DNA of 62,488 nucleotides, counting the filler, from Hausera hauseri (lineage: Eukaryota), in the NCBI GenBank assembly GCA_046269625.1. It is 14 parts of 14 records of this genome, joined end to end, with 100 filler letters (N's around TTAATTAATTAA, not from the genome) between each part and the next. Parts side by side here need not be neighbours in the genome. Positions count along the whole stretch, not along the records: positions 31,115 to 35,914 come from JBJURY010432139.1; 13 more parts are not named here. One strand, written 5' to 3'. Made by a program: the position numbers and the translations under genes. Shown here one piece after another: positions 1,148 to 62,488 of the stretch (its first letter is position 1; each line of letters starts with the position of its first letter). The notes beneath the pieces are model-generated. The model saw only the letters and a program-made list of their open reading frames with translations. It did no database searches and was not told the DNA's origin.

Positions 1148-2199
<1,052 letters not shown>

Positions 2200-2214
<15 letters not shown>

Positions 2215-9300: not shown

Positions 9301-9407
9301 GAGTTCTACATGGCAATCGACCATACATTCCTAACGACCTTTACACAGCTAAATTCGTTTGGTTAAAAAACCAAACTCCGGTCGGTTTTCAGCCACGGTA
9401 CACCGGC
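6306..9407 (+). pseudogene. pol: pol: protease, RT, RNase H, integrase (disrupted)
   Basis: DTGAA, ILGSDFL, YRPCGDYRQLN, MPFGL, YIDDILI, TDHKPL, VADFLSR, DQGPQ, SNGLLER. Confidence 0.95.
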
Positions 9408-10281: not shown

Positions 10282-10359
10282 TACGTGATGTACCGGTGTT
10301 TTGACTACTATTAGCCATAAGATATTAAAAAATTTTAAATTATTACAGTTGACTAAAAT

Positions 10360-14030: not shown

Positions 14031-14177
14031 TATAAAGTAAAATAAAATTTTTATAATATTTAGAGTGTGATAATTAANNNNNNNNNNNNNNNNNNNNNNN
14101 NNNNNNNNNNNNNNNNNNNNNTTAATTAATTAANNNNNNNNNNNNNNNNNNNNNNNNNNNNNNNNNNNNNNNNNNNN

Positions 14178-17100
14178 TTTTATTGCGTATTTCAAGAATG
14201 GTGCAAACGGAGGAGACATTATACTGTGATGTAAAGACAAAATCAACTTTGTGATGCTGCTTTATTGACAAATGAGTTCGAAGGCAAATAGTAGGTTTAT
14301 TTGTGTCAATGTTAATAATAGTGGCGCGTTCCATCAATTCAGTGAGTGGTATAGCTGTAGTAATGGTGTATGTAGCCGTTATAGGTATTAGGAATGCTAG
14401 AAAGATGGGGAAAAAGATAGCCGAGTATCGGTTCTGAATGAAGTGTGCAGGGTAATATTATGACGTATTCATGGAGTGAGTTTTGTGCATAGCTGCCACT
14501 TTGGGCTCTTCTGTTGTAAGTGATTCTAACTCTTTCGCGTATGAAATCATTATATGATGTAGGTGCTCGAGTCACTCGTTGAACAGGCAGCTTCATATTT
14601 GTCAGGTCCTTTCTGGATAAAAAGTGTTTGTGGACGTACATCAACAACTTTGTACGGTCCTTGACTTGTACATGTTAATTTTAACGATTTACCTTTCTTC
14701 ATCGCAGGGTAGTGAACCATTATGTAATCTCCCATCTTATAAGTATGGGGTCATGCTTTCTTGTTAAATCTCTTTTTATATCCGGCTCTGTACTTTTCTT
14801 CAAACTGTTTTGCTTCGCGTTGAAAGTATTCGAGTCGTTTTAGCAAGATCTGGTACTGATCGTCCATGTGATCTCTGGTTAAAAAGGATTATGGTAATAA
14901 TTCCGTATCTAAGGTTAGTAAAGGTAACTGTCCGAACATTAACTCAGAGTAAATGATTAGTACTTTTGGTAGGTGTCGTATTAATTGCAAAGGCAGTAGT
15001 TTTTAAATGGTTATGCAAATCTTTTTGATCATTTGCTACCTTTGTAGAAAGGATACCTTGGATGGTACGATTCATTCTTTCGACCATACCGTTACATTGT
15101 GGGTGGTATGATGTCGTTAACAAATGTTTGCATTGGAATATTTTTGACAATTTCTCGAAGAATTCGCTAATGAAACATGGTGTACGGTCAGTTAACAACT
15201 GTTTCGGGGTGCCCAGTACAGCAATAATTTTGTAGAAAAAGGCTTCAGCAACTGTGCTACTGGTCATGCTTTTTAATGACACCAATACAACGTAGCGAGA
15301 AAAGTAGTCAACAATGGACAGTATATATTTGTATCCTGAGTCTGAAGCTGGGAAGGGTCCGGAGATATTTATTGAACACACTTTCATTGGCTTTTGTGCT
15401 TTAGGTAAGCTTCCTAAAAACGGCTTTACACGAAATCCTCTATCTTTCCTTGTGGCGCATATTTTACACGAACGTACCCATCCTTCAATATGCTTATTCA
15501 TTTGGGGCTAGTAATATTTTGCGGTTATACACTTCAAAGTCTTATTTAAAGATGGGTGTCCAGCTAAGCGTGAATCGTGTTCTTGCAACATGACAACCTT
15601 GATGGCCGGTGTGGGTACAAGGATCAGTTTTCTTTCTCCGACTCTTAGTCGTAAAATGCCATTTTCGATTTCAATATTTTTTCGGTTCTTTTCATAAAAT
15701 TTTTGAATGTGACTTGATATTGAGTCAATTAATTGTCCGCTGATTAATTGTTTGATTCGAACAATAAAGGGATCTTGGTTTTGTAATGTCTCGATATTTC
15801 GTTCTTGAATTTGGCGTTGTTCTTGCACCACATCGTTAATGATTTTCTCATTCAATTGTTTGTCATTCTCAATATATAATGGTTTATAAACTGCAGCTAC
15901 TATCTTATTGTATGGCATTCTCGAAAGTGCGTCGGCGTCTCTTTTCTTTGCCAGGACGATATTGATATTCAAGATCATAATTCAAAAGTTCCAACTTCCA
16001 TCTTTGGATTCGACTTGATACATGTCTATTGTCGGAGCATAAAGATAAGAGTGCCTTATAATCAGTAAATATTGTGATTTTATGACCGTAAACGTAATAC
16101 TTCTAATGTCGCAATCCATCACGAATAGCTAGTAACTCTAATTCAGTGGTTGAGTATTTTTGTTCTGCATTATTTAACCTACGTCCTTCGTAGGGGATTA
16201 CGTGTTCAGTTGCTTTTTCTGGATTTTGCTGGGCTAATATGTAACTAATAGCTTTTATGCTAGCATCGGTTTTCAGAATAAATGATAACGAAAAAGCTGG
16301 GTATCTCAATATAGGTGCTGATATCATTCGCTTCTTAATCTCGTCAAATGCATTTTGGTTTTTTTCTGTCCATTCTCATTTGTGATCCTTTCTTAAGAGT
16401 TTATATTGAGGCTGGTTAATTTCCGCAAAGTCAGGTATAAATGTAACATAAAATCCTCCCAAATCTAACCAAGCTTTCATTTCGTGGACATTGGTTGGTG
16501 GGGGATATTCCAATATTTTGGATATTAAATCAGGACTAGTCGGAATTGCTTGGTTGGAAACAACAAATCCAAGATATCTAACTTCTTTCTTGCACCATTC
16601 ACATTTTTTCGGATTTAACTTTAATTTCGCGAGTCTAATTCGGTCGAATACTTTTTTAAATTCAGCTAAATGCGCAGACCATGTCTCGGACGCGATGAGA
16701 ATGTCATCAATGTATGACAAACATCGTACTCCTTTTAGCACCAGGCGAATAAATTCTTAAAAGAATGTGGGTGCTGTTTTTAAACTAAATGGCATACAAG
16801 TGGATTGATAGACTCCGGTGCTGGTCTTGAATGCAGTTTTCCATCGATCTTCTTCAGCTACGAGGATTTGCCAAAACCCACTTTGTAAATCTAATGTGGT
16901 GAAATATTTACAATCTTTAAGTTCATCTATAATATATCGTATTCGGGGAATCGGATAAGCGTAATTCATCAGGTGTTTATTTAAGGTAACGTAATTTACA
17001 CAAACCTGGTTTAGTCGTATTAGCCTTCTTGGCCATAACTATGATAGAGGGCCATGGAGATTGACTTGGTTCTATAATACCTTTATTGAGCATGGATTGA

Positions 17101-18628
17101 ATTTGCTCCTTGACTTCCATTTGGAGTACTTTTGGAGGAGGGTACCATTTTGGTATAGGTTGTCGCAATAAATCTTTCTTTTCCTGTTAACGGGTCAATC
17201 ATAAATGATAATTTGAATTTGACTAAATCAATTCGTCCGATATCTGTTTCATTCTTTGCAAAAATATCAAGATACTCAAAATGAGATCTGATAAGTTTTC
17301 TAGATATTCATCTGATAGATTTTTCTTCGCTTTTGCGAGGACAACGTTTAATATATCTTCGGCATTTTCTTGTTCTGTGGTAGAGACGGTCGCGACTTTG
17401 TTATCGTAATTCTCATAAGTTGTTTCAAGGGCTAGTCCAATTTTTGTTTTTGTGAACAACGTGACATTTTGTGGTTGGGTTTAGAACTTCTACTGGAATA
17501 GTTCCTCCGATTACATTAACACAATAATGTGGTAATATATGCCCATTTCGAAGAGTTTTCAGCACAAACTCAATGACACTGTTATCTGGAAAAACTGTTC
17601 TAGCATGTATAACCATTCTAGAATTGGGTGGTATTTTCTCAACATGTCCTACCCAAATGTCTGTTTTGTTGTAATTAGGGGGTTTATCTTCATTATTTGG
17701 ACAAATTGATCCTGATTGTAAGTTTATGTGTACTTCCGATTTTTGCAACACATTCTTACCCAAAATGCATCGCTAATCCAAGGTAACCATTACATCAAAA
17801 GTTATCTTGACTTTCTGTCCACAAATCCATGGTTCACTTTCCTGTATCCATAAGGTTTACTGCATTGTTGAAATGCCGAAATAGTACCAAGCGAGTCTTT
17901 AGTAGCCAATTTTATTTGGCACTGTAATTTTTCTGGAATTGCATGTTTTGCTATTAACGCAACGTTGGCTCCGGTATCTACCATTGCATTCAGTTCAAAA
18001 GTATCAAAGTGGACTGTTGTATGTGGTCTATTTTCTCGTAATAGTTCAAGAAACGTTAATGCTTTGTTGTGGTCATCAATATGACCTTCCATCAAGGTGT
18101 AATTAGCCGAGTAATGTCGGTTTGTGCTGCTGGATAAAACGACCGTTAAACTCTGCAGTGATTGAGTATCATTTTCTGATACTTTGCGTTTATTCTTGAA
18201 TTCAGTTAAGTCTGGATAGCAACTGACATGCTTTATTGTTCTGTTGTTTATTGTTAAGATCGGAAATAGCCAAATGGAATCTTCTGTCTGATTGAGTTTC
18301 TATTGATCTAGTTAATTGATGATAAGGTACTGGGTGTAACGTACCCATTTTGGGTGAAACAGGTGGTGTTACTCGATTATTTTCCATATTCCGTGTAATA
18401 ATGGATTGACGTATCTCTTCCTGAGTATTTTGGCAAGCTACGCAATTTTATATAATCTTCTTTTTTGCGCAAGGATCCATTAAATCTGTTAGATTTGGTA
18501 ATTTACAAATTAGCATTGTTTTATTATCGTATGGTCAGCAGGTAATTTATGTTTATCCTTTTATTTGGCTTCATAAACTTGAATTTTCTCCTCGTATCCT
18601 TAGGAATCCCTGTTGTAGAATAGTACTT
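14178..18628 (-). mobile_element. pol: Large Ty3/gypsy-type element, pol region: pre-PR linker, PR (~17800-18095), dUTPase-like spacer (~17425-17650), RT (~16376-17168), RNase H (~15920-16330), IN (~14580-15600), post-IN extension
   Basis: VDTGANV; LDLQSGFWQI; YIDDILI; TDASIKAI..YSTTELELLAI; HDSRLAGH..CKIC; VDYFSR, TDR, HPQCNGMVERMN; GPY motif. Confidence 0.95.
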
Positions 18629-21251: not shown

Positions 21252-22750
21252 TTAGGTTCTGACACACGCCTTCTTCTTGACAAGATCAAATGTAGTGGGG
21301 AATAACTGTTTCGCCTCCTTGAGTTCTTCGGCAGGGCGGTTCTTTACTAAACTATCCAGTGAAGACGACATGAAACGAAAGCCGTTTATGAAGCGAAACC
21401 TGATTTTACGAACATGCTTGGTCAATGTGATGTATTTTTCCTCACTATTAGGGATCACATCAATGTTTCCTTCAATACTGCCCAGTTCCCGAACAATGAA
21501 ATGGGAATCATAGCCACTGAGATTATGGAACACTACAGGAACATGTGTACGTATTTTGCAACGTAGATTGCAGTTGTTTCATGCTGCGTCCCGATATCTG
21601 CCTATAAAATGGCAACGATCCCTGACTTTATGATTCTCCTTAGTGACTGATTTGGAGCACAAGTAACATGCTGTTGCCTTGCGCCATTCTTCTTGCTGCT
21701 TCGGCATGCTCATTGTATCCTTATGCTGCTGCTGCATATCTTCAATCCTATGAGCCATATCTTCAAGTCGCTTCATGAAATGAGCTGCTGCGCCTGGACC
21801 CCTAAATAGATATGGTTCACTGTCCAGTCCTTTCGCATACATGCAATATAATGACAGCTTATGATATTGGTATGCCGTTGTGCTGCTGTGTTGGGGATTA
21901 GGACTGCAACTCTGAACTGGGCGCCGGATTGATTCAAAGTCGTAATAAATAACTATTGGGACCTTGATCTTCTTCTCGAACTCACTGAATTCAATATAGT
22001 CCTCCTGGGGGAAATCGGGCTTGATACAATAATTATTGTTGTAGTACATATTGTGCTTTGCAAACTTCAACACTGCGACATCACCGCTGAAATGGGTTAA
22101 GCATCGTTTACATATTTCTATTTGTCCATGATGTTTTGTAATTTGTGATCTGACTAGCCGCTCAAAGTCTTTGATCCTAACATAATGTTTCTTTTCTCCA
22201 TCATCTAGTAGGAGCATATCCCTATGATCTTCCAATTCAGTATCGCATATCTGCAGAAGGTAGAATTTGTGCTCCTCATCCAATCCCAAGATATTGATGG
22301 AAATGTTGTTGATTCGACTAAACTTCTTGACTTCATCTATGGATGGAGGGAACTTGATACATTGGAAGTCATAGTTGTGCTGCACATCCTTATATAACCA
22401 AACTCGTGAAGAATAATTTTGACCCCTTACAAGTTTTGATAAAATGACATGCATGAAACACGTGTTGTCGATATTATTGACATTGACACATGTCTTTTTA
22501 TTAGCGATCCAATCAGGGAGCTGAATATATGAACTGCTCCGCATGGGAGAGTACTTGTAAACGAACACAAGCAATCTCTTGATGGTTGCCACAGTCCATT
22601 CACCCTTCTTATCCTAGCTGTCCCAGACTTCACTGATCAGCTTCTTGTGCGCCTCTTGCAACCATTCTGTTATATTGGTGTTTTCCAATATAGGTCTATT
22701 TTTGGTCTTGAAGGCCCTCTTTGAAGGCTTTTTTGCCGTCAACATTGATG
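21252..22750 (-). pseudogene. Adintovirus/Polinton protein-primed DNA polymerase B, N-terminal/exonuclease fragment
   Basis: SSYIQLPDWIANKK.CVNVNN.DN.CF, HYVRIKDFERL, VIYYDFES, C-YL-C..VRDRCHFIGRYR, FHNLSGYDSHFIV, RFMSSSLDSLVKN. Confidence 0.9.
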
Positions 22751-22968
22751 TATGATAAAAGTTATTAAGTATCATTTCTGCAGTTTATATTATTATAGTA
22801 GGGAGAAAATGGGGATTCGGGCACAGCCCCCCGGGGGGATTGGATCGATAAATCGATATTGCACATGTNNNNNNNNNNNNNNNNNNNNNNNNNNNNNNNN
22901 NNNNNNNNNNNNTTAATTAATTAANNNNNNNNNNNNNNNNNNNNNNNNNNNNNNNNNNNNNNNNNNNN

Positions 22969-23984
22969 AAGATACATCGTGGATCTAAAGTTGTCATTAC
23001 ATCTAAAATCACTTTTAATTTTTTTCCACAAATTATAGGTTCGCACTTCCAATACCCATATGGTTTCAGACATTGCTGAAATGCTGATGTAGTACCGGTA
23101 CATTCTTTTGGGGCCAATTTTATGTGTGACTGAAACTTTTCGGGTATTGCATGTTTTGCTATTAATGAAACGCTGTCTCCAGTGTCTACTGTTGCGTTTA
23201 TATCGAAAGTATCGAAGTGAACTGTCGTATGAGGCCGATTATCTCTTATCAGCTCGGGAAAGGTCAGTATGTCGTTATGATTATCTATATGTGGTTCCAT
23301 TAAGGTATAACTTGCTGCACAAAAATTTGATGATCCATTTGATAACATGACTGTTAAACTATCTGAAGATTGCGTATCATTTATAGGCTCTTTCATTTGT
23401 TGTTTGAGTTCGGTTAAATCCGGGTAGTAAATTACTCGTTCAGCAAAAACTCGCTGTATTTTAGCAGGTGGCATAGTTGAAATCAAATAATTCGTCCTTC
23501 CATTTGGTTGTTCGATATTTTTATCGATGGTTTGTTTATTTAATTTGACTCTATGATGAGGTATAGGTGGCATTGTGTTTAATTTTGGAGACATTGGTAA
23601 TGATACTCTATTCTCTTCCATACTTTGAGTAATAACTGGTTGAAGTATTTCTTCTTGCAAATATCTAAAAATACTGCGCAGCTTTATGTATTCTTCTCTT
23701 GTAGCATACGGATCATTCAAGTCAGATAACTTTGGTAGCCTATCAATTGTTTGTTCGTCAGTTGGACGGGTTTTCTTTTCATACGGAGTGTCTGGCACTA
23801 CATAATTGCTCTTTAATTTTCTTTTCTTCACTGTAAAAAGTTTGCGGATTTTTCTGTTCTTTTTCTTGGAAATATTCGGTTTTGAGTAGTCTCCAAGTGT
23901 ATTGTCATCATCATCTGAGCTTGATGAATTATATTCCAGTATAGAATTGCCAGTCTTAATCCACATGTTTTTCCAATTTACCAC
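22969..23984 (-). CDS. Start of pol of the large gypsy family: ~250-aa linker plus aspartic protease (cut by contig end)
   Basis: RPHTTVHFDTF..VDTGDSVSLI (DTG at 23178-23186); closely homologous to 17800-18628. Confidence 0.88.
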
Positions 23985-26106
23985 GCCATTGTTTTATATG
24001 GTAAGCTTTAATGAATTTACCAAGTGGGGAAAATAGAGCACCAATTGTTCTCAGAGATAATCCTGTCAAATTGTAAATTTCGTATGCATTTAATATTGAA
24101 TTGATATAAACTTTCGAAATTTGCATGATAAAGTAAATAGCTAGAAATCCGGAAGCTACTTGTCCAAATTTTAAAAATTCACCCTACATTTTGTTCCATA
24201 AACTGGAAACTACTTTTGTATAGGCATCGGGCATCCACAATCGATCCCATTTTCCTTCTCCAGCAGAATCATCAATTACTCTGTGAATTCCTCTATTTAC
24301 TACTTGCTCTCGTTGTCTTGGATAGGCTAGAAATTTTACAAATGAGTCAATTTCTTTTTTACTATACAATGCTGACTTTGATACGTCAGTAAACATGTTT
24401 GTTTCAATGGCATGTCTGAGGTTAGTCATCGTCAACTTTTTTGGTTGTTCCTTTACTCTATCTCTATCCGGTAGTCTAACCCATAAGTCTTGATTATCGT
24501 ATTTGATAAATGGCTTGTTCAGTGCTGTACAGTTTTGAATTTCCGTTGGAATTGTGTGTGGTGCCAGTAATACTCTAGTTATAGGCTGAACATATCGAAT
24601 TTCATCTTTATACTTAACTGGTATTTCTGAGTAGCAAGGGGTACCAGTGATTAATGGTAAGTCCAATCTCTTGCATTTGTAGGTGAACAGCACTTCTCCT
24701 AGGACTCTGCCTTGGATTCCTTCGCCAAATGGCAATGTTATTGTTATCATCTCTGGATTTGAAGCGTAAATGGCCAATCCATTTCGTAATGTCTCAAAAT
24801 TGATTTTACAGAAGTTCTACATTGTCTCAGAATATATTTCTTCTATTGTTTTGTGGGTGAGATAAAATAGGAAATCATCTTGATTAGCGATGTAGTCAGC
24901 AATGTTCACTAATTGTGCTCTGTTAACTGGCGAATTATCTGCCTGTGCAATCTCTTTTTCCAATATGAAATAATTTTCATAGTTTGTACTGAACACTTGT
25001 TGTCCACATTTAACGATAACGTCTTGTTGTATAAATTTAACTCCTTCTTTTATATCCTTGGATATTACAATTTTAGGGGTTCTCACTTCTGGAATCACTT
25101 GAGTGTTTGTATTTTCAAAGTTTGTTTCATAGTGTCGAGCGTAACATTTTCCTGTCCTTACATTAAATTCGACTTTTCGAATCTGTACCAATGAGCATTC
25201 ATAGCTCTTGGGCACTGTCCATACTATAGTAGATGACTTCGTGTGACAATGTCCAATTTATAATCTGCAGAAAGATACATTTATCATTGTATTTGTACTT
25301 GTTTCGAAGATAAAGGTATTTTCTTTGATTTCGACTTCATATTGGTCGTGCATTACTACTCCTGAAATAACACCTTTGCCAGTATCAAAACTTCCAACTT
25401 TGAAATTATCTTTTTCATCCTTATGTCCCGCTATCCATTTCTCTTGCTGAGAAATTTGGCCTTTAATTGCTGTTAGTAGTATGTCTCCATATTTCAGTTC
25501 TTGAGTTTCAGTTGCATCTCGTCAATAAGTTGGATTAATCGACAAATATCTAGGCATCGTAGTAGGCTGTATTAAGCAATCATGGTGTAAATGGCCACAG
25601 TAAGAAATGGTGCAAAATACTCGCAATGAGCATTCTAATCCTTTTATGTAAAGCGTGGTTTTATCGTAATAAATAAATAGGTTTTGTAATATTGTTTCTA
25701 GTTTCCTCGGAAGTGCATCCGGGCATGATAGTAAGTCCATGAGTGAGTAGTAACTTCCTTCATAAATTTTGTCACAGTCATATGCCAATATGGTTCCTGA
25801 CCTTTTGAAATTAGAGAATAAAACCAGTATATATAGAATGAGTTGTAAGAAGAATCCGTTAGATTTTGTTCCGTCTGTCTTTTGTATATCTTCCTGAACT
25901 TGTTGCTTCATTGTCTCCATAACGACTTGAACTACTTCCTCTTGAGGTGTATTCTGAGTGATTTCATGAATGGCTTTTTCTAAAGTAGTTTGGCCTACTT
26001 CTGGTTGAGTTATTTTTTCATTTCGTAAGAACAAATCTTTCCATTTACCATATTGTGGTATAATTATCTTGCTAGCTTGGATTATTTTTCCAGCTGTTAT
26101 TTTCAA
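23956..26106 (-). pseudogene. env: Chuvirus/herpes gB-like (class III) fusion glycoprotein (env), ~630 aa from internal signal peptide at ~25854
   Basis: Hydrophobic signal FFLQLILYILVLF, then ILAYDC..YSLMDLLSC..LEC..SYCG; GEVLFTYKC..CYSEIPV..YVQPITRVL..NC; C-terminal membrane block FLKFGQVASGFLAIYFIMQISKVYINSILNAYEIY; a few stops and frameshifts. Confidence 0.82.
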
Positions 26107-31114: not shown

Positions 31115-31620
31115 AGAAATGACATTAGAGAGATATGCCCAGCAATGTGACAAATATAAAAGGACTAATGATCTCAATAATCGGAATAGAACCGATAATC
31201 AAGTCAACAGACGATTTAGTAATAATAACCAAAATCGAGGTTTTAATAATAGTAATTAATATGCGCACAATAGGAGTCAAAGCAGTTATAGAAATTTTAG
31301 TAATAATCGGAATACATACGGTTCGTATAATAAACCAAGTTACAATTTAGATAGGAACCAAGGTAGTTACCGACTCAATAATAAATACACCGATAATCGG
31401 AATAAGGATAACAGATATGACAGAGATAACAGACAAACATCACGGAGCCAGAATAAGAATATAAACAGATCAAAATCACCCGTAAATGAGAATGCCCGAC
31501 AAAGTATTGGTCACAATGGGAATTTAATTTGTTTTACATGTGGAAAAGAAGGACATATTGCTAGGTCATGTCTAAATCCTAGAAGTGTTACATTCTCTGA
31601 ACCGACTAAAATAAGTATGA
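31115..31620 (+). pseudogene. gag: gag C-terminus: N/R-rich region plus CCHC zinc knuckle
   Basis: CFTCGKEGHIARSC at 31530-31571. Confidence 0.8.
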
Positions 31621-31735
31621 TTAGAAATAATTTAGAAGCCATCTATGGTAAACGAGGTGATATAAGCATTATCATCGAAATGCGAGATCTACGCAGATCC
31701 ATAAGAAACCTAGGCGAAACTACTATCCTCAAGTC

Positions 31736-34700
31736 ATGAAAGCTAGAAAAGAATATAAAAAGAAATTGCTATTAATTAAAGTCTATCATGGATTAAGAGA
31801 ACCACAAACCGATGAAGAATGGACTTTGGCACCAAATAATACTAATATGGCGCGTACGAAGTATATTCCGCAAGAAATAGCAAAATCGGAGAAACTAATG
31901 ACATCTCAGAATGTAGATTTAGACGCAGAATCCGAGAAAAACAAACCAGGTGGAACAACAGATGAGATAGAAAGTGAATTTATTGGGCTTTTAGTTCTTA
32001 AGATAACCAAGAATAGAGGTAGAAGCCTATCGCCTAAGAGAAAATTCAAGACTCGTTCAAGATCTCCCATTAAAAGGGATACAGAAGAAAATGGAGATTT
32101 CTATACTGCTATTCTAAGAGATGACTCGCCCTCAGATATTTCTATTACGCCTATAGGGATTCCAGAAGTGTTAGAAATGCCAGAGATAATAAATATTAAT
32201 GACGAAGTCAATGAAATTTGTCCGCTTCCAGCCAGTGAGGAAGAAACGGACGATAATAATGATCCTGATGCAAAAAAATGGAAAGTTCGACGTTCATGGA
32301 AGAATGCCGATGAATTAAAGAAAATGAAAATTAGATGCCATGATCCAGATATACTCCGACACAATTTAGAAAGGCTTAAACAGATCAGTGAACAAACAGA
32401 CATATCTGGTAAAGAACAACAATTTGCGGGAAAATTATACGAAAGTTTAAAATTATGCAGTAAAGGAAAACTGTACAAAGAAATCGAATTAAAACAACCT
32501 GAAGAGATGCCACAAGACACGTTGATGAAATAGAGCCGTGAATTAGAGTCATGGATCAAAAGTGGAGTCGAATTGTCGGAAGGATGGAGCAAAGACGAAG
32601 TTAGTATCGGTATAAAAGTCGCTGAAGTGCAAACACTACTATCTACACTATAAGCTAATCACAAGTTGAAGAGAGTAGCCCGTAATTTAGAACGTAAGAT
32701 GGAGGAAATCCGTTATGCAACAATCAACCGGTTTAGGGAAAAACCGGTTGGCAATCGAAGAAATATCGATTTAGAAATATTGGGTGTAGACCCGATTGAT
32801 ATTCCTCCCTTAATGGAAATGATAAAAATTGCATTTCTTGAACCCAGGCGATGTGCGGACTTAGAGAGTCGCATTAAAGTAGAGAATGAAAGAAGGTCAC
32901 AGATTAACAGTTTAAGAAATCGAATTATGTATATAAATAACGAAAAAACCGAATATATAATAAAGGCTTGTATCATAGAATTCGACGAATATAAGAATGA
33001 ACTCAATTATGTTAGCCAATTTATGAACTTTATAAAAGGCCCAGACGATGAGTTGAAAGATGCCTATAAGACACTAGACAAAGTAATATTAGCCAAGCCA
33101 ATAATCGCCAATCAGTTGTCAGAATGGTCCGAATTAATAAAGAAATTAATTAAATTAATAGAAGAATGTAAGAAAGAATTTCCGGAAAGCGAACCATCTG
33201 TAAAAAAGCAACTAGATGAAGGTGCACTTAACTTAACCACCATATAAGCAAAAATAGACAGCCAAACACGGTTCGAATCATTACGACGATTAAATTTTAT
33301 GAAGAAGAAGCAAAAAAGACAATGTTAGAAGAAATATATAAAATGATCAAAGAGACAAACTTTGCAGAAAAATGAAATATGACTTGCAATTTTTACTCGA
33401 AGTTAAGAAGCATCCGACAAGAAGGAATCCAATATTTAACAGATAGACCTATCAACAAGATTTCGATCCAAGATATTGAAACTTTGGATATTTGTCCGGG
33501 ACATAGAGCGGCTCTAGCAGAAACAATAAGATTTTTGCTAAACCACGAGAATGGATAGCCGGTACGAATCAGAAGTGCCATACTGAATTGACGAAAATAA
33601 GAAAAAACGAACGTCTTAATGTTGAAGAATCTAACTTCGTAAAGAAATTGCTGGATGCAATGGATCCCGACTCAAAAATTATAAAAGAGATGTATGGGCT
33701 AGCTTACTTATTGGTGGAAATGGCGGAGATTAATGATGAACGGATGAGGCAATTAATGCCCAAATTACAACAAGTTGAAGAGACGTGCATCAGAACGAAA
33801 CAAAGAGCAACGAGCCTAGATGAACTAATAAAAGACTTTGAAAGATATCGGAACAAGTACGCTTTTACGGAATCAGAAATCAAAAATAAGAGAGAATTCG
33901 TGCAGCGTTGGCAAAAAGACGTAATTGTTGAACTAACCGATTATCACCAGAAAGGATTCATCAATTCTGATAAATTAGGCGAACTACTAAAAATGATTCA
34001 ATATGCCTGTGGAAACGGAATAGGTTTCCGGACTACACAGATGAAAGAAATACAACCAAAATTGAGCGAAATTTGAGAAAATGTGCAAAGGACGAACACA
34101 GCTTTAGTAGACTATTGACTCCCAGATATTGGGAATGAACCAGAATGGGATGCTTATTTAGAAGAAATAACGGCCGAAAATCCGGTAATACCAGTACACC
34201 TCGACGAAACAGAAATGTATCCGCAGAACAGAAAATATAAGGTAGAGATGCTCCTGGACTCAGCGTTAACCGAGAAGGACCTGATGGAATCAATTAACGC
34301 AAATATTTCTGAAAATAAGCTCAGACACTTATTCCGACTCTGACTAAATTATGCAATGAAAACACAATTTACAGCACGGTGCCGAAACTTTTAATAAAAA
34401 AGTACGCGAAAATCTTGAAGGATAAGCCTGAGCTTACGATGAAAATAATGATATTATCTGAGTGGATGGAAGAAAAAAATATGTAAGCTACCTACTTATT
34501 CCTACGTAAAGGATTTAAGAGAATGGTTAGTAAATAACGGCGGAACAAAAGAACTAAATTACAGATTTTACTTTAGAGAAAGAATACTCGACGATTTAGA
34601 ACAATTAATAAACGTAGGAATCATTCCCGGCGAAACAAGTAGGATAGTAGTAACAATAACTAATGAACAGAAGAAAGAGGAAGCCACGCGGAAGGCTAAA

Positions 34701-35340
34701 ACGGAACAGTGCGTAGGACAAATCATGGAAGTAAGAGACGCCGCAATGTACTTCGAATATTTACAAACGGACAAAGACAAGGAACAACCCGACAAGAATC
34801 TAGTGCTGCTAAGTGGAATAACAGCCAATGCTCCGAGACCAAAACGCTTAGTCGGCAGACCTAGGAAACTACGAGAAGAAATAGACTATAATGGCGAATT
34901 AATTAGAGAGTAAAGACAGATGTCGATCCCTGCATTTAGCCCAGATAATAAAGAGTTAAGCGAGTTAATGAAGAATTTAATACGAATTTTAAATTATTAA
35001 AGCCTTCGAGGAGATACATTAAACGCTGAATAAAGAGCAATATTCAACGCAGCCAGGACAAAGAGAAGTTCGCGTTTCAAACTGTCAAAATGTAGTCTAA
35101 CTGACGACGCAGTAGTCGAGTAAATTATGGTGGAAAATACGACAGAAGAGCTAATAAAAGTATTACTGTACTTGGCAATCAATCACGAAAATGAACTAAA
35201 TCGAGCTACAAGTTTGGCACGAAGAGCATTTAGTAAACTTCCGTGTGAAGCAAATTAGCTAAAATTGTTCGACAAAGAAGAATACAAAAGAAACAGCAAT
35301 AATTGACTCGGAGACATTATACGCAATCTAACGACAACAG
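31736..35340 (+). pseudogene. Long decayed K/E-rich, probably helical region of unknown function between gag and env
   Basis: Chain of same-strand ORF pieces split by single stops or frameshifts; no PR, RT or IN motif. Confidence 0.65.
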
Positions 35341-35377
35341 ATAATAACAATAGGAAGAACGAATCCAAGCGGTTCAA

Positions 35378-35914
35378 TTGGGTGCCGTTACCGTCTACGA
35401 TTGTTATAGATTTAAACTTAGACAAAATTATTCACTAACGGACTTAGAAGCATGTGAGGACGCCAGACCACACAAATTGGAAACAAAAGAAAAGGGTTAT
35501 TTCCTATACAAACAACAAGAGTTGATATCTTTGGATGGCATGGAATGTATGCTGAGACGATCCCGTAGCATTTTCCATTGTGGGTTAATGCAGTGGACAT
35601 TCCTCGATAATCAAACCAACAACTCCTCCGATCCCAATGAATTTGGAAATTCAACACTGCAAGCAAGCCCGAGAAACCGGAAGACTGAAATGGGGTAATA
35701 TGGAATTAGAAATGCAACCCGGAAGAATAATCAGACCGTATAAGATAGTAATCGGGATGCTAGATATACATAAGGGGCACTTTAGTAGAACGGAATACGA
35801 TACCGGGAAAGGTTTGGAAGCAAATGTAACAGTAGTAGACTTTTACGAATTGGAAATGCTAGTCCAAAAAGTAATGTTCCATAGTGTCACTAAGCTATAT
35901 ACTGAGCATCAAAA
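35378..35914 (+). pseudogene. env: N-terminus of chuvirus/gB-like glycoprotein (paralogue of 23956-26106)
   Basis: VTVYDC..NYSLTDLEACEDARPHKLET..GMECMLR..FHCG aligns with ILAYDC..YYSLMDLLSCPDALPRKLET..GLECSLR..SYCG. Confidence 0.8.
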
Positions 35915-40172: not shown

Positions 40173-42600
40173 ATCTTAACATCATGAGCACCTTAGAATT
40201 ATTTTCCGCTGATTGCATCAAAGCAACCTGCAAATCAATTTCGCCAAATGCAATTTCTTCCAGAAACGCGTCAACTTCTGAGGCCACATAATTACTCCCT
40301 AAGGTCATTCGTCCCAGCCTGATTGTTTACAACAATTAAAAAGTGTGCATTTCTTACACAAATACGTGCCACATTGCTCCGAACTAACGGCACCTTTCGC
40401 ACATCTCTCATCCGGAAAGAAAAGATAATTAATCCACTGGACTCCCGATCTAATAAGTCAATTTGATCACCTTCGTGAAGATCTGAAAATCCTTGAAATC
40501 TTGGCTTTTCAAAAACTAAACGCGGAATTAAAATTAACTAACGATGCCTCCACCACAGCCACTGGTGCGATATTACACCAAATACACAATGGTGTGGATG
40601 ATCCGTTAGAATTTTATTCACGAAAGCTTACGCAATCAAAAAGCCGATACTCTACATTCGATCGTAAACTCCTGGCCATAGTTCTAGCGGTAAAGCATTT
40701 TAAGCATTTGCTCCTATAACATCAATTCGTCATCCAAATCGACCATAAACTTCAACTTTATATCACGACGTTGAAACAGCCGTCACCCAGACAAGAACGA
40801 CAGATATCATACCTGTCGACATTCAGTTTTTCCATTAAATATATTTCAGGCACCCAAAATTTAGTTGCAGATTTTCTGTCGCGGTCAGTCAACTCAATTA
40901 CAGTTCAGCTAATTTCCTCCTCTGAAGTCTTGAGAAGTAATCAGTCATCATATGATATTCTCCAAACCTTTAAATCAGTCGAGATCATCGATGGAATTGC
41001 CTACGACACATCCAACTCGACTAATAAAAAATCATTCTTGCTCCATCGCTACAAAAGACAGCTTTCACTCACTTTCACTCTCTTTATTATCAGGGTTCAA
41101 AAGCCACATTCCGTCTACTGCAACGCCATGTTGTATGGCCGACTATGCGTACAGATGTACAAGTCTGGGTTAAGGGATGTGTAGCATGTCAACAATATAA
41201 GGTTCATAAACACCTCAAACCACCAATTTATCACTTGCCGTGCACTTCTTGTTTTGACATTGTTCATTTGGATCTTGTGGTCCTTTACCATTCGACTACG
41301 GCTATCAATATATCTTATCCATAATAAACTGCGCTTCTCGTTGGCCAAAAGTCGTTCTTCTTTAATCAACCAACACCGACTCAGTAGCCGATGCATTTAT
41401 CAAGATATGGGTCAGTCGTTTTGATTCACCGCGTCGCATCATAACGGACCAGGGTCCGCAATTTGAAACTGATCTCTTTAAATCTCTGGTAAAACACTTG
41501 GGGATAGTCCATTCCCATACAACTCCGTACTATCCCCAAGCAAATTGTCTTCTTGAGAGATTCCACCGTACCATGAAGATTTCCTTAAAAATCTTGGCAA
41601 ACGACAATCATAACTAGACCTCAGTTCTTTCACTTGTCATACTCAGTTGGCGCAACACGCCATCCACCACCACAGGTTGTGCCTCAGCTAAAACTCTTTT
41701 TGGGACACCAATTCGTGCCCTATTTGAACTCTCCAATTTCGATGAAAGTCCATCAGATGAAGTTATTCCTGCTACACAGTCATACTTTGCATATGTCAAC
41801 TCAAACGCCTTTTGCCGCCTTATAAATAAAGACCAATCCTATATTCTAGGGGACTTATACTCAGCGAAGTTTGTATGGCTGAAAGATCCGTCACCTTCTG
41901 GTTTTCGGCATAAGTACGTTGGTCCTTTTAAACTACTCAACCTATCTTCGCACACCGCTACGATTTTACTTAAGGACAGACCTCAAAAGGTACACATTTT
42001 TAACCTTAAGCCAGCATTCTTCGTTGACGATGACCAGGATAACAGCCCTGTTTCATATTCTAACGCTAACTTCTCTCTTCTCGAGACATCATCTAATTTC
42101 GTCGATGATTTTGATCCGTCGCAGCAATTACTCTCACGTCACAATCAGTTCTCTTCACTTCACTCATCGTCCAGTGCTCCTTCACTACTTACTTTACCGT
42201 CATCGCATGCATATCCTCTACTCATTTCACCTTCATCGCACAATTTGCTTCCACCTCCAGTCTCGCTTTCTTCCTTTTCCCTTTTTCAGCTTCTTCTCCA
42301 CTTTCACCTCTCTATAAAGCATCCTCCCAAAACACCACTAAATCTACAGCATCTCTCTCTAGAAAAACTCCGCAATCACTAGCAACATCTAACTGGTCAC
42401 TCCAAGTACTTACAGTAGGGAGAAGTTCATAGATGGAATCCAACGTCTGACACGTATCAAAATCGAATAGAAACAAGTTCTTCCTTTTCTTACCACAATC
42501 TACACTTATTTTTTTTTCTTTATAGTCTTTCTTTTGCCGCGGGGTTGATGTAGTGCCTGAATTGTGGTCGCACTGAGTGGTTTAGCGAGTCGGTGATGAG
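40173..42600 (+). mobile_element. CsRn1-like gypsy copy 2: RT end, RNase H, IN, Ser-rich tail, G-rich PPT-like tract and putative 3' LTR start (TGTAG at 42549)
   Basis: DASTTATGAIL, PLEFYSRKL..YSTFDRKLLAI, VADFLSR, TDQGPQFE, LERFHRT; collinear with 7650-9407. Confidence 0.9.
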
Positions 42601-43269
42601 ATTTTCCCCGCCATTAAGATAGCCAGCTAAGTACAATAGCTTTAGTAATGATGTGAAATGAGCGTGGGTCAAAGATGGTAAAGATAATACTTATTTTCGA
42701 TCGAAAGGAGAACCTGTGAAATTTCGGAAAGATAGTGTGAATGCACTCATTTATCTCAAAACTGCTGACAAGAAATCCGTTAATACAGAATTTAGAATCA
42801 CTCAACATTTCACTGTTGCGAAGTAAACGATTAAAATGACTACTTTTAATTTCGTTACTTTTGACTGGAAGTAGTTAGACTTTATTGGTATTTTGTCCTT
42901 CTTCGCATTTATTTGAAGCTTCGTTTCAACCTTCCATTTGATGTACATAGAATATAAAGAGTTTAGCCAGTTTGTGTTTGATTGTGTGTTTAAGTCAATT
43001 GTAATAGTACCATTGGTGGTCATTGGAGATTCTTTAAAGAAGTTATATGATATGAGTGTTGTATATGGTACACAAGATGTTTCTATATATGTATTATTTA
43101 ATTCAAGTGTCTTAGAGGTTAACATATCTATTGTTGGACAATTTTTATTTTTCTTGAAACCATTGTTCCCACCAATTCCTAAAGTGCCATTAACGATTTC
43201 CCCGAACCCATGTACCTCTAAACCCATCCAGATACCATAAAACCCAATTCACTGAACTCCTGAAGCCTA

Positions 43270-44570
43270 CATATTTCTTTACACAATATATATTTATAGA
43301 AAAAAACATCTAATTTAATTTTTCATCAAACGCAGCCATTGTTAACGCTGTGCTCCTCCGCGGGGGAATTTCTCCACCTTTAATTGATTGGGTTAAATCA
43401 ATCACACCGATTTTAGCAAACATTCCAACATAACTCACGCCAGCAGCCGAGGGACAGAAGCAACGCGAACAATAATAGCAACGCATCTAATGATGTATAC
43501 CTTCAACGACAAAACTATGTGTCAATCCTGTTCGAGAAAATCTCTCCACAGCAGACTTCATCGTTGACTCAAAATTTTTTTATTCCCTGAGTCTAACAAC
43601 AAATTTTGTTCTCTGACGACATCAAGATCATAATTCTCTTCTCCTACATTATTATTTTCATCTGTTACATAATGTTACATAGATCGCTGTGATTTTCTAA
43701 ATCTTTGGTTTTGATTAATATATTTTTCTAATCTATCATTAACAGAATTTACTTGACCTAAAGAAACTTCCATCTTCACGATGTGATTTCGATTCTGTGG
43801 TAAATGTATTTGAACTATTAAGTCTATGCTTGGGTTCTTTTCTTGAACTACGTTTTCCCAACTGGTAAGGTGTGTTGAGTTAAATCCAATTCTCAACATG
43901 ACAATTAGTTTTCTAGAAATGACTTTCTCATCCACTGTTGTATCGGAAAGTGTGTTTACCATATTAGCCATACAATTAGAATTTAAATTCTTTTCAAATT
44001 TTATTCAATTTTCATTTTCAATATATTTTACGCAATAACCGATGCAAATATTTGTTGTAACCAAAACTTTCCATCGTTAAATAGCCTGTCGTTTTCTTCT
44101 GTGAGGCATAAATTCAGTCAATAAGATTTAATATTTTCTATTAATAATGTTTCGTATGGATGTATTATGTGTATACATGTTTTCATACTATGGATAATGA
44201 GTATTCTTAAAATTGCATGGTTTGGAATTCATTTGAAATACTTAAACAGCAATTAACTATCAAATATATCGTATTTACTGCTTATTGACGTTTTGAAGTT
44301 GAATATCAAAAGGATTTTAATTAATTTTGTTCACATGTATTTCTTTTCGTTTGAAAGATATATGCATATTTTTATTTTGATAGAACATAACTAACCATTA
44401 TATTGGTACTAACTCTACAAACCCACTCAGAAAGCTTTGGTTTGACTCTCAAACCATTTTGAAACGCCCATTTACCATTAATTCGACATATTCCAACCCA
44501 TCTTCAACTTGAACTGAGTAAAGTCTTTTCTTAAGATCATTAGGTGATTACATGGTTGAGCTTGTCCAAG
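43270..44570 (-). pseudogene. Decayed ORF homologous to the unknown gene at 18729-20930
   Basis: KIGVIDLTQSIKGGEIPPRRSTALTMA versus KIRLIGSARIPKGGEPPPRKGTAITKA, with visible DNA similarity (43335-43382 versus 19042-19089); 5' limit is a guess. Confidence 0.5.
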
Positions 44571-45004
44571 ATAGGTAGAGGTAACCTGTGTGAGTATACA
44601 GGGTGCGTGCGCTATTTTCGGATTGACTTTAAAGTATAACCACAACGTAGTGTTTACTTTTAGAAATTCGCTTACCAGANNNNNNNNNNNNNNNNNNNNN
44701 NNNNNNNNNNNNNNNNNNNNNNNTTAATTAATTAANNNNNNNNNNNNNNNNNNNNNNNNNNNNNNNNNNNNNNNNNNNNGCCTTTCCGCTATAAAATGAA
44801 AATCAATAATATTAATATGACACATAAACTGGCAGGTGGAGTACTTGATGTACTATCGTTCAGTGAAATACTCGAGTCAAGTGTGCTTATGGTTACGGTT
44901 GCTAAGGCACTTTTTCACTTTTCACATATTTGTCACTGTGCAGCGTAGAGTTGATGGAATCGACTGGGGTCAAGTGCAGGTAGATAGAGCACATCGAGAT
45001 GCAT

Positions 45005-53758: not shown

Positions 53759-54499
53759 NNNNNNNNNNNNNNNNNNNNNNNNNNNNNNNNNNNNNNNNNN
53801 NNTTAATTAATTAANNNNNNNNNNNNNNNNNNNNNNNNNNNNNNNNNNNNNNNNNNNNAGTATATGATTGATCGACAGTAAAATTATTGAGAAATGATGG
53901 AGGTATTTACCAGAGTAGAGTATATTTTTCAAAATCATAAAGGCGACCGGGCAATCGTACGATTTCTTCTCTTGTTACTTAACGTTAAATTACCCGCCGT
54001 TTTGTTTGGAGTGAAATGGCATGAATTTAACCCGAGGGTGGAGATTGAAGTTGATATTTAAAGATACTATACGAAGAGTCTAAGAGAACAACGTTGTTAT
54101 TATGGATGTGGGTATGTGTATATACGTGTGTATATACCTATGAGACTATTGTGAACATATAAACTCAGAATAGCAATCAGAGTATAGATATAAAGGATCA
54201 TTGTTGAATGAAGGTGTTTAAGTAGTGTTAGGTGGATACATTTTAACAAGGAGGATGGTATTTATAGTCTCCAGCACGTGGCCAATTGACATGAATGTAA
54301 TAATATTCGGGAGAGGATCTAAAAGTCCCTGATTGATGAAACAATATATGATCTTATCTTTTAGTGATAAATATAATCTAGTTATAATATGATATTTCCC
54401 ATCTTGAGACTAATGAGAATACAACGATTTCAAGAAATATACAAGACATATAAATGATCAATTATTTTTATTCAAATAGAACTCACGCAGTGGAATTTA

Positions 54500-58430: not shown

Positions 58431-60752
58431 CTACCGTTTTAAATCGGCCGCCTCGGCTCTGCATACCGGACAGGTGGTTTTTTCCGTTACCCAACGTCCA
58501 TTTTTTAAGCAGTCTCTGCAAAATTTGTGTCGACAATCACGGTTATTTAGCACTACGTATCCCTGTATCAGGTTTGCCTCGCATACCGGGCATTCGTTTT
58601 TCTCTTTTTCCCAATTTTCGTCGTTCAAGTTGACATTGACATGATTTCTATGGGTTCTACTATTAACCCGTCTTCGTCCTGGTATAAATAAGCGAATATT
58701 CTCTTCTGCTTCGGATTTATAGAACTCTTTTTGGGATCACATCCCACGGGTATTAATGTCCAATCGCTGATAGTGTCTCGATCTAAATCCGGAACTTCAC
58801 CAGTCGATAGGTATTTTTGATATTGCTTCTTTAATAACAGTTTAAGTGATTTATCCACGGGAACTAAAAGTTTGCCATTTCTCCTGGACTGGAATATCGG
58901 GGCAACGTATTTTCCTATCTTAGAATTTTTCCAGACATACGTGTTCTCTTAAACTAGTCTGGCAGGCATTAATTTGACAAAAAACATTGCCTCTTTAATT
59001 TTTTATTTTTATAATATTCAGTGGCTATTAGCATCCTGGGGTAATCTGCTGTAGCAGCATAGTGAACATCTTCTGTGGATGTCTTCTTCCGTAGGACGTT
59101 TATTTCTGTTACTTGTTCTTTCTGCTTGCTTGGTTTTCTCGTGGACGTCTCAATGCGGGACTGCATGTCTGACTTTGAGGGTTCTTCTGCTGGTCGTTTT
59201 GATTTTGAATTTCTTCTGACTGATCTCCGTTCCTCTTTCGGTTCCTTCTCTCCTTCTTTACTTCTTTTCTTAAATAAGTAATCGAAGAAGGAGGTTTTTT
59301 TTAGCTGTCTTCCCAGTCTCGATTTCTGAAATTCTGTCTTTTTCTTCTAAATATTTCCGAGGAATTTCGGGTACTTTAAACGGATTATTATTGGTTTTGG
59401 TGTCATAACTTGTACTTTGTTTTTTGTTGGCTGGCCGTTTATCTCCTGTCTTTTCTGTTTTCAATCCCTGGATGGTTATCTGATAGTTCCATTTCGGCGT
59501 AATCTCAACATTTCTTGGTGGTGAGTAAGGACAGAAATGCTTTCTGTAACGTGTACTGATTCCTCCCGGTTTCGGAAAATTCCGTAGGTTTTGTCCGGGA
59601 TTATTGGGAATTTATTCGTGTTCCCACTTAAGTCCAGCATTTATATCCCTTAGGTATTGGGATCGTTGACTAGCGGTCAACAGTCGACTTATTTTTTTAT
59701 TTCCTCCAGTCATGGCTTCTACCATTAGCGTAAATCGGCCTTCCACGGTCGGTGGTAGATAACCCTTCTTCTCTTTGACCTTTATTTCCACTTGTCCCAT
59801 TACAGTTGGATGGGTCTCTATCTCTGTCATTCCGGCTAAGTGCGTTACTGGTATGTTTACTTCTTTTGTCATCCTCTCTACTTCATACCCCACTAAGACG
59901 TATCCGTAGAGACATTGTGCTATTTCCGGTTGTACTAATCAAGAATCTTTCCCATGAGTCAATTGCTCTCTTTTAATCCCAGTAACTTCTGCATAAGTTT
60001 CTAGTACTTTCCTTCTCGGATTAATAATTTTCGAATAGACTTCGGCCCCGTTTTCTTCTCGGATGGATATTTCGATCGGGATATAATTTCCTTCTTCTCC
60101 TTCTCCATTGTTTACTGCGGCAATCCTGATATTCCTGTCGTGGGTTACCAATCTAAACGAATGTAGATTTGCGTCCTGTTCTTCTTCAGTGGGCCTTTGC
60201 CTAAACTCTAAGGGCGGCAATGAGATGGGTATTGTTTCCTCTTCAATTATTTCGATCATCATTTTCACAGTTAAGGCGACCACACGAAATTCCAGCTCGT
60301 AGTTGTGAAAGTTCCTATTGTCAAATATAAAAGTGTTAAATCGGCTTTGCCTTCCTTGGAAGGAGTCCCATTTTTGGTATTTCAACAGATAATAGATTTT
60401 CCCATCGGCCAAATGTACATATATCCTCTGCTCCTTATCCGCTTGGTACTGGGTGATCAGTTTCAAAGGGTATGCTCTGGCATCTTTATTCTCTCTCCAG
60501 GTATATAAATATATAGTTCTGGCCTCTTCGGTTGTTCCTTTCAAACTATTTGGTATCTCGCCAACTTCTCCATATTGAACGAAGTTCTTTCCCTGCAATT
60601 CTGTATTGATTTGCCTATAGCTGGCCTTGTAATTCTGTAACCGTACGCTCACATATTGCTGTAAAAATTCGTCAATACTAAGTTGACTCGTAGTTTCCTC
60701 GGTGTCGATTCTAAGTCAGCTCTGGTTCATCTGGGTCTGATTACTTATCAAT
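58431..60752 (-). pseudogene. 3' accessory ORF of large gypsy element (~770 codons, disrupted) ending in a C3HC4 RING finger
   Basis: Collinear ORF pieces; CPVC..CRHKFCRDC..CPVCR in 58431-58628. Confidence 0.7.
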
Positions 60753-60901: not shown

Positions 60902-62230
60902 TCATTCTACATTTTCATGGCGCTTAGAATGACAGTTTTTGGTAACTAGTCGAAATGTCGCAATTAATATAATGAGAACAAACGTTGATAGTACTGCAAT
61001 AGATACAATCGCTAGGGTAGTTAATTCTAGTAGTGCTCGAGTAGTAATTGACGTTGTAGTCTCGTCATCTATATCCTCATGCGTACGCGATTCTGCGTGC
61101 GTTTTGTCTAAGGTATGCAATATAATTGTTCGGGTTTGTTTGTTCTCTGCATGCACTTGTACTATAAATTCAGATTGTGGTTTCAACAAATTGCATTTTG
61201 TTCTATAGATGTGTTTAAATAATATTAAAATTTGGTTGTTCTGTGTTGTCCGACAACTTATGTATATGTCGCAATTCTGTTTCCTTTCTACAAAGAACAC
61301 GATTTTATACGGATGATCCGAAAATCTGATAGGTATATTCTCCAATTCTGTTTGGGTATGTCGTTTGTGGTGACAGCTAGACGAATCTTTTTGGTTGTGA
61401 TTTCCACTAAAATTTTCCAGATTCTATTTTCTGGATAGTAAATTTATAATTGTATACTTGGTTGATTAGACCGTACCTCGTATAAGTCAAATCTTATTTT
61501 GAACTCCTGGTTCACAGGCACTTTACAACAGGAGCGTTGTACACCTGCGCGAATATAGCAATATTCTATTTTCGGGGTTGATCCAATTGCTGCTTCGAAT
61601 ACGATAGTAATTTCTCGATTGACCGTTAACTCTGTCCGAGTGTCAACCTGAATGCATTGTCTTGCTTTATCGACCGAAATTCTTTGGATATTCTCATCAA
61701 ATAATCTTATGTCTGTGTTGGTAGATCGTAAAATCCCGTTTGGTTCTATTCTATGGTTTTCGTTTCGTTCAGAAATAATTAACTGAAATAGTGGCCTTTT
61801 TTCGTAGATTTTGGATAAGCTCGGTAAGTACAGACGGTATGTAAGATTGTAAGTGTGTCCTAAATCTATGTTACAACATTTCGTGTAATCTCCAAACTCG
61901 AAGTAACAATTCTTGACTTCTTCTATTGCATTATCTAAAACAATTTCGAACCTTCCGAAATCGTGATGTGGTTTCTGCGCCTTAAATCCAACGCATGTGG
62001 AGATGGGTAAGTAATAGGGAATTGACACTGATTGTAATAATCTTTGAATTTCTTTGATTGATGGTTTTCTTTCCGCTTTAGTAGCTTCCAATTTTGCTCC
62101 ACTTTCCTGACTTCTGCAGATATCTTCCAGTATAGGTTCGTTGAGCCACCTTTTTGTTTGTGTTCTCGAAATGTAAGAATCAATTAACGATATTGCTAAA
62201 ACTATCTGAACATACGATATGGGCCTAGCA
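60902..62230 (-). pseudogene. Type-I membrane protein (~440 aa) continuing from integrase
   Basis: Signal-like PISYVQIVLAISLI, Cys-containing ectodomain, Thr-rich stalk, TM LAIVSIAVLSTFVLIILIATF (~61024-60953), short basic tail; one stop (61444) and one frameshift. Confidence 0.7.
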
Positions 62231-62249
62231 ACTATCGAGGAAGTTTTTA

Positions 62250-62488
62250 TTTCGCGTTGGCGTAAGTTGTAACGTTTACTGAGTCGAATCTCTGTCTTAA
62301 CAACTTTTTGGATTGATAAAATTTCTTCCTTTCCATTTTTGTTTATATATATTGTGCTTGGCGTGACTTTGGTAACTTCGTATGGTCCTCTGCCTGTGCG
62401 AGTTAATTTTAATGAAGTGCCTTTCTTGGCTGCTGGGTAATGTACATAAACCCAATTTCCTTGTTCTATATCATACGGTTTTGCTTTC
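62250..62488 (-). CDS. Integrase C-terminal GPY/F region of the large gypsy family
   Basis: GNWVYVHYPAAKKGTSLKLTRTGRGPYEV..RYNLR matches GDYIMVHYPAMKKGKSLKLTCTSQGPYKV at ~14640-14735. Confidence 0.85.

Follow-up and report, generated by a model that had tools for sequence, protein, structure and literature searches.

The DNA window analysed here is a stretch of 62,488 bases that consists of 14 short contigs with N-spacers between them, and the feature under study is contig 8 (positions 31115-35914, + strand). This contig very probably represents a broken copy of a Ty3/gypsy retrotransposon over its segment from gag to env. The host is likely a triclad planarian, and the intact form of the element is likely to have encoded one gag-X-env-pol polyprotein, as in the Burro elements and other GAG-ENV-POL errantiviruses. 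The copy on contig 8 itself is dead. For giant gypsy elements of planarians, the position of env ahead of pol has already been published (Burro, PMC6431247; PMC13524379). The following features were assigned to contig 8:

31116..31736, + strand: C-terminal part of gag, an Asn/Arg-rich nucleocapsid-like stretch with one CCHC knuckle at 31530-31571; the capsid part lies beyond the contig
31572..35380, + strand: region X, about 1275 decayed codons, K/E-rich and of helical or coiled-coil character, without a pol domain
34452..34700, + strand: weakly supported candidate for a ubiquitin-like (beta-grasp) domain within X
34911..35315, + strand: helical stretch directly before env, noted by position only, where Burro and the relative P0008 have Bcl-2
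35381..35914, + strand: N-terminus of env, a Monjiviricetes-type fusion glycoprotein (PF24664), about 175 codons, broken and ending with the contig

The cheapest coding path along the + strand of contig 8 contains 12 stops and 7 frameshifts and has a cost of 26. The - strand costs 45, and 100 Markov resamples of the contig came to 84+-5, none of them below 73. An earlier sequence-only reading of this DNA had described a CCHC knuckle, a long K/E-rich decayed frame and the start of a glycoprotein on one strand, and this observation was confirmed. The distance between knuckle and env, which had been put at about 1250 codons, was measured at about 1275, and the claim that no pol lies between gag and env agrees with the scan of seven contig-8 segments, in which protease (PR), reverse transcriptase (RT), RNase H (RH) and integrase (IN) gave no Pfam match at E<=1. 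The base composition is even across gag and X, with 41-42% A and an AT skew of 0.27-0.32, and the skew of env is 0.20. No boundary resembling a long terminal repeat (LTR) or a terminal inverted repeat was found within contig 8. The knuckle at 31530-31571 matches the Pfam profile zf-CCHC above the cut-off (E 1e-5), and the gag part matches the knuckle region of the related polyprotein P0007 (0 of 500 shuffles, z 5.5). Moreover, 10,887 contigs of run X1 align to contig 8 with a likeness of 80-99%, covering 30 of 30 bins; 413 of them are at least 99% identical to contig 8, 1493 fall between 95 and 99%, 4047 between 90 and 95% and 4934 below 90%. The share of these contigs that run on unlike is 0.02. 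The cover of all bins together with this low unlike share is as expected if gag, X and env belong to one repeat family.

The env part of contig 8 matches PF24664 (Monjiviricetes_fusion) at positions 20-88 with an E value of 3.5e-5 and 22.4 bits, below the cut-off of 27, and it was matched by 12 long relatives in tblastn. Alignment with the env of contig 6 yielded 40% identity over 68 amino acids and 33% over 98 amino acids, so that the description of contig 8 as carrying the same glycoprotein does not hold at 33-40% identity, while its designation as a paralogous N-terminus stands. The PF24664 type is presumably a gB-like class III glycoprotein, in line with PMC13524379. Further parts of elements of this type are present on three other contigs of the window:

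Contig 6, 24004..25842, - strand: near-complete env of a second family, matching PF24664 positions 5-601 of 653 (E 1.7e-58), broken by stops
Contig 6, 22971..23993, - strand: immediately after env, a linker and an aspartic protease (Pfam RVP, E 0.0013), 57-62% identical at the amino acid level to the protease region of contig 4
Contig 4, 14610..18628, - strand: linker, PR, RT, RNase H region and integrase, decayed (Pfam RVP, RVT_1, Integrase_H2C2 and rve)
Contig 14, 60905..62487, - strand: C-terminus of integrase, continued in the same frame by a predicted type I membrane protein (hydrophobic stretch, ectodomain and transmembrane helix), broken, with hydrophobic windows of 1.74 and 2.96
Contig 14, 59395..60712, - strand: further open reading frame (ORF) of about 440 codons, without a Pfam match at E<=1 and unmatched in four relatives
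Contig 14, 58458..58598, - strand: RING finger (Pfam zf-RING_2, E 6.7e-9)

With an uninterrupted piece of the contig 6 env as query, an index-free search gave 197 matches at E<=0.001, and the figures given here refer to the 150 matches listed. Among these, 11 proteins are longer than 900 amino acids, with 7 of them in the top 20. PR and/or RT were detected behind env in the same ORF in 9 of the 11 long relatives at E<=0.001 and in a tenth at E 0.0018. The complete series PR-RT-RH-IN follows env within one ORF in P0004, P0009, P0054 and P0112 and in the cluster member P0153 (4844 amino acids), and gag precedes env in the same ORF in P0007 (CCHC) and P0026 (Retrotrans_gag), each of which contains the entire gag-env-pol order. 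A pre-env region of about 1345 amino acids, near the spacing on contig 8, is present in P0041, which ends just after env. With gag followed by env on contig 8, env followed by PR on contig 6 and env followed by pol in single ORFs of intact relatives, env-before-pol is well supported, and the sequence-only reading was right in this claim and in the proposed order gag-X-env-PR-RT-RH-IN.

Searches of other types with env were negative: a word-index search among proteins of 1265-3610 amino acids gave 0 matches, a weak negative, and scans for related loci yielded 6 pattern matches in viral contigs and 69 in metagenome contigs, 0 of which were confirmed in either set. Word-index negatives are weak in general, since env was missed in this way although the index-free search later gave its 197 relatives. 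As a separate observation on the contig 6 env, the segment 26110-26918, the 0.8 kb upstream of the env ORF, has a skew of 0.02, without the A-rich skew of the element, and matches no other contig; it represents a truncation or an unrelated insertion. Among the polyproteins, tandem aspartic-protease stretches were counted, with 6 in P0153, 4 in P0007 and 3 in P0009, and P0153 also carries ankyrin and C2H2 domains. The env-pol polyprotein P0004 is filed under a metagenome-assembled genome of the Flavobacteriaceae and is likely animal DNA that was binned into a bacterial genome.

The pol region of contig 4 displays the Ty3/gypsy order PR-RT-RH-IN, and its RT-RH part is 37-42% identical to that of the env-bearing polyproteins and 31% identical to that of the gypsy element on contig 2. 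In a tree the contig 4 RT groups with the env-pol polyproteins, apart from contigs 2 and 10 (100/100). The interval between PR and RT on contig 4, the place of a dUTPase-like stretch in Burro, gave no Pfam match at E<=10, and of six relatives compared, one has a PR-RT interval that it matches (0 of 500 shuffles, z 5.5). Contigs 6 and 4 are linked by 70% nucleotide identity over 468 bases, and contigs 4 and 14 by the integrase tail only, with 54% identity over 50 amino acids; four relatives match that tail at 34-44%. The 100 residues before env on contig 6 do not match the pre-env part of contig 8 in any of three frames (109, 49 and 364 of 500 shuffles), and the contig 4 tail, likewise compared in three frames, does not match the post-integrase ORF of contig 14 (358, 159 and 88 of 500 shuffles). 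These two mismatches mean that three families or more contributed to the composite, with contigs 6, 4 and 14 deriving from distinct, though related, families. The proposal to join contigs 8, 6, 4 and 14 by homology can accordingly be retained as far as the three links are concerned, not as a description of a single element, which is ruled out by the unmatched pre-env and post-integrase regions. The accompanying remark that the contigs come from different subfamilies was correct. The non-overlapping sum of the four contigs is 14,143 bases, without LTRs or the capsid part of gag, and falls short of the 16 kb or more of coding sequence that had been estimated. In no family were X and the RING ORF found together.

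Region X stays mostly unexplained. It likely serves as a slot for cargo that varies by family and consists of domains modulating the host, ubiquitin-like ones and possibly Bcl-2-like ones. A Pfam profile search of X returned nothing at the cut-off, and a word-index search with its first 507 codons gave 0 matches among 7998 scored candidates of 889-2535 amino acids, a weak negative that covers this length range alone. By eye, the segment 34452-34700 shows a ubiquitin-like pattern. It aligns over 30 amino acids with a pre-env stretch of P0004 (2 of 500 shuffles, z 4.9), a result that is marginal after correction, being one of 84 tests. Folded together with that of P0041, the P0004 stretch shows a beta-grasp strand order in a low-confidence model (predicted local distance difference test, pLDDT, 43), and ubiquitin-like and SUMO domains predominate among the closest structures, none reaching significance: the best Foldseek hit had an E value of 0.66, with 0 matches at E<=0.001, and the best VIA-align hit a Z score of 4.9 (root mean square deviation 4.3, 76 aligned residues), with 0 at Z>=5. 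The ubiquitin-like stretch of contig 8 itself has neither a Pfam match nor a PDB sequence match, a PDB sequence profile built from the two-relative alignment produced one irrelevant match only, and the ESM Atlas contained no usable match for the pre-env part of P0041. The ubiquitin-like ranking of the modelled pre-env stretch is only suggestive.

Directly before env, P0008 contains a Bcl-2 domain (Pfam E 9.6e-4, below the cut-off; PDB Bcl-xL E 0.0099), and the pre-env parts of P0005 and P0041 appear Bcl-2-like by eye only, with searches giving no match. The single-sequence fold of the helical stretch at the equivalent position on contig 8 reached a pLDDT of 35 and is uninformative. The six frames of the window were also searched with a three-sequence Bcl-2 profile, with the ubiquitin-like stretch of P0041 and with the whole pre-env region of P0041, and nothing significant was detected; MATH, BIR and ankyrin domains gave no Pfam match at E<=1 in the seven contig-8 segments. 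Within X, a short basic Gly-Arg-Pro motif at 34839-34892 is common to the pre-env regions of P0006 and P0153 (3 and 11 of 500 shuffles) and looks AT-hook-like.

On contig 14, a hydrophobic stretch follows the integrase tail in frame, and a strong predicted transmembrane helix closes a second ORF. The same two hydrophobic stretches follow the integrase in P0004 and P0009, and the second ORF matches the post-integrase region of P0009 (0 of 300 shuffles, z 4.0; one of 32 tests). The first post-integrase ORF and the RING finger, the latter confirmed as the sequence-only reading had it (see the zf-RING_2 match above), are unmatched in the post-integrase part of four relatives. The post-integrase protein has a fibronectin-III-like look; a Pfam search gave no such match at E<=5, and a search of the ESM Atlas with the post-integrase ORF gave no usable match. 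For elements of this type, literature searches listed no paper on a membrane protein or a RING ORF located after integrase, as judged mostly from listings, and the supplement of Grohme 2018 or Repbase may already contain them. Membrane proteins resembling that of contig 14 recur behind the integrase of relatives and may be undescribed so far. A more far-reaching and, in our judgement, rather doubtful proposal is that in-frame gag-env-pol elements make up a lineage that extends past Burro and is built in modules, with two slots for cargo. The slot between gag and env would hold about 1275 largely unmatched codons and a ubiquitin-like domain; the slot after integrase would hold a second type I membrane protein that is conserved, along with a RING ligase in one family, and this second membrane protein would act as an undescribed attachment or decoy glycoprotein. 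If true, the polyprotein would cross the membrane of the endoplasmic reticulum (ER) several times and give rise to two surface proteins. A different X along with a post-integrase membrane protein common to relatives would show that the slots swap content and would provide new domains to characterise.

The likely host was deduced from a zinc transporter gene on contig 3, which is 65% identical to that of Schmidtea mediterranea (E 9e-142), whereas the remaining 38 of 39 matches reach 42% identity at most. Provided that all contigs come from one source organism, a triclad planarian is the likely host, of a species different from S. mediterranea.

Several observations weigh against the interpretation of contig 8 as part of a gag-X-env-pol element of a triclad. 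The contig stops inside env with its own pol out of view, and in the three frames before env no hydrophobic signal is recognisable (best 15-residue mean 0.87); a hydrophobic window of at least 1.6 precedes env in 8 of the 11 relatives scanned, and the contig 6 env likewise has none at the 1.6 threshold. Among the X1 contigs listed, none exceeds 434 bases or spans contig 8, and pieces of this size demonstrate the repeat, not long-range linkage across many copies. Since 139 of the 150 env matches listed are no longer than 900 amino acids, many having the size of a stand-alone glycoprotein, env by itself does not fix the gene order. Most of X is unmatched in any of the 12 relatives, and Bcl-2 was not detected on contig 8 in four tests (Pfam, PDB, the three-sequence profile with E 4.3, and the fold with pLDDT 35), a weak negative for a decayed copy. 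The RT tree was rooted at its midpoint, contains two outgroup rows only and gives contig 4 a long branch (1.43), and the triclad assignment depends on a single gene located on another contig.

On contig 6 env and PR lie in different frames, so that the in-frame fusion of env and pol is deduced from the relatives, and env and pol might be separate ORFs in these families or be joined by programmed frameshift, in an element of the same class. The env of contig 6 ends in one frame and an overlapping linker-PR ORF begins in another, and PMC13524379 describes three ORFs and allows ENV-POL gaps of up to 2 kb. We regard this arrangement as unlikely, given that contig 6 is decayed, with 14 stops and 3 shifts on its cheapest path, and that env continues into PR or RT in the nine long relatives mentioned above, as ORF1 of Burro is continuous. 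It is quite improbable that the contig 8 family is non-autonomous or pol-less (gag-X-env) and depends for its mobilisation in trans on the families of contigs 6 and 4, which bear pol: although contig 8 lacks pol, differs from contig 6 in its pre-env region and has a counterpart of similar pre-env length in P0041 that stops just after env, the contig merely ends inside env, P0041 may be a cut gene call, and most long close relatives continue into pol. The contrary case named by the sequence-only reading, in which gag, X and env are separate nested insertions that share their strand by chance, could appeal to the largely unmatched X, to the missing long record bridging contig 8 and to the env signal that is not visible. 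It is highly improbable, as a single coding path far under chance cost and of even skew runs through the contig, no terminal repeats interrupt it, repeat cover extends over 30 of 30 bins, and in relatives a single ORF comprises gag, long inserts and env. The reading of contig 8 as the gag-to-env part of one Ty3/gypsy element is hence preferred.

The remaining contigs of the window showed additional features. Contigs 1 (1-4241) and 3 (9508-14077) contain tightly packed and seemingly intron-less pieces of host genes, among them the zinc transporter of contig 3, the frame of which is unbroken over 362 amino acids at the 65% identity to S. mediterranea given above, as well as an ABC transporter membrane domain, OST-alpha and RasGEF; these pieces could be retrocopies or captured cDNA fragments. 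Contig 12 (49086-53758) consists entirely of a 30-base tandem repeat with 156 copies, 76% match and a 15-base subunit, in which several frames are open. Contigs 5 (21267-22754) and 11 (46982-48448) are copies of one another with 84.6% identity over 1.5 kb. By eye they resemble Polinton/Maverick polymerase-associated sequence, and a Pfam search at E<=0.001 gave no match. A second, ordinary gypsy group is represented by contigs 2 (4342-9407), 10 (40173-44679) and 13 (53859-58245), which are 63-67% alike at the DNA level and have no match to the env of contig 6 or contig 8.

In a working element of the contig 8 type, env would be threaded into the ER lumen by an internal signal and a transmembrane helix, and Gag-X and Pol would stay cytosolic, with signal peptidase and the protease of the element itself setting them free. 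Replication would proceed by reverse transcription along the ordinary Ty3/gypsy route, the class III-type env would let particles pass between cells, and X would supply host-modulating cargo. By analogy, the element would work like Burro, and it fits the GAG-ENV-POL group; membership in Burro proper is unproven, MATH, BIR and ankyrin not having been detected on contig 8.

The plant Tat/Ogre elements share with the present element the character of large Ty3/gypsy elements with extra coding sequence (PMC6431247). Ogre, a plant element with very long LTRs and no env, was rejected as the closest family on account of the triclad-like animal host and the presence of env, and the comparison with it in the sequence-only reading was a poor one. 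The resemblance to Burro noted there was borne out by the same module order, with CCHC gag, a long accessory stretch, env and PR-RT-RH-IN in one direction, to which a likely triclad host, an env akin to mononegaviral fusion proteins and a ubiquitin/SUMO-like candidate before env can be added. The qualification "but enveloped", meant as a difference from Burro, was mistaken, as Burro already has env in frame between gag and pol, namely between BCL2 and PR, with a dUTPase-like stretch before RT (PMC6431247). According to this source, by Arkhipova and Yushenova, the giant gypsy elements Burro and GYPSM1 occur in Schmidtea mediterranea and in Dugesia (Girardia) tigrina, with decayed copies in D. 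japonica; the internal region measures up to 25 kb, and more than 30 kb with LTRs. ORF1 of Burro comprises 4873 amino acids and contains gag knuckles together with Smc, MATH, SUMO-like, BIR, ankyrin and BCL2 motifs, and ORF1 of the D. tigrina element is also without MATH. In contrast, no MATH, BIR or ankyrin was detected in X of contig 8, Bcl-2 is not confirmed there, and the composite of different families amounts to 14.1 kb. Burro has two or three CCHC knuckles after a retrotrans_gag domain; one knuckle is seen on contig 8, where the N-terminus of gag lies beyond the contig. Burro env was likened to gypsy Env, and the accessible part of PMC6431247 describes no post-integrase membrane protein. 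Within the accessible parts of PMC8532177, PMC11410931 and bioRxiv 10.64898/2025.12.11.693146, nothing further on structure was found.

GAG-ENV-POL elements with an HSV/gB-type env were reported from Platyhelminthes, Bryozoa and Nematoda by Chary and Hayashi (eLife; PMC13524379), including six families of S. mediterranea with 1-215 copies each, and the supplement counts ENV-POL pol regions, of which S. mediterranea has 830, Girardia tigrina 59 and Dugesia japonica 16. The elements described here share with them the gene order, the Ty3/gypsy pol and a gB/chuvirus-like env, and their six env rows from S. mediterranea look similar, by eye only, to the env of contigs 6 and 8. The 13 family pairs shown in that paper are 27-64% identical, a range that brackets the 33-40% between contigs 8 and 6. 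GAG was sought there within 5 kb upstream of ENV-POL, which places elements with an X of this length at the edge of the screen, and the accessible main text does not contain accessory, additional ORF, RING, fused or Burro as whole words. Long and variable pre-env regions likewise occur in the env-pol polyproteins P0004, P0007, P0008, P0009, P0041, P0054 and P0153, the env of which is 26-30% identical to that of contig 6 and which differ in their cargo, comprising tandem proteases, ankyrin and C2H2 in P0153 and Bcl-2 in P0008, with no match to RING. Burro-type elements seem to hold apoptosis and ubiquitin modules in their polyprotein, and the interplay with planarian stem cells is described as open (PMC6431247). 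To these known systems the present data add a divergent, high-copy family in what is apparently another triclad.

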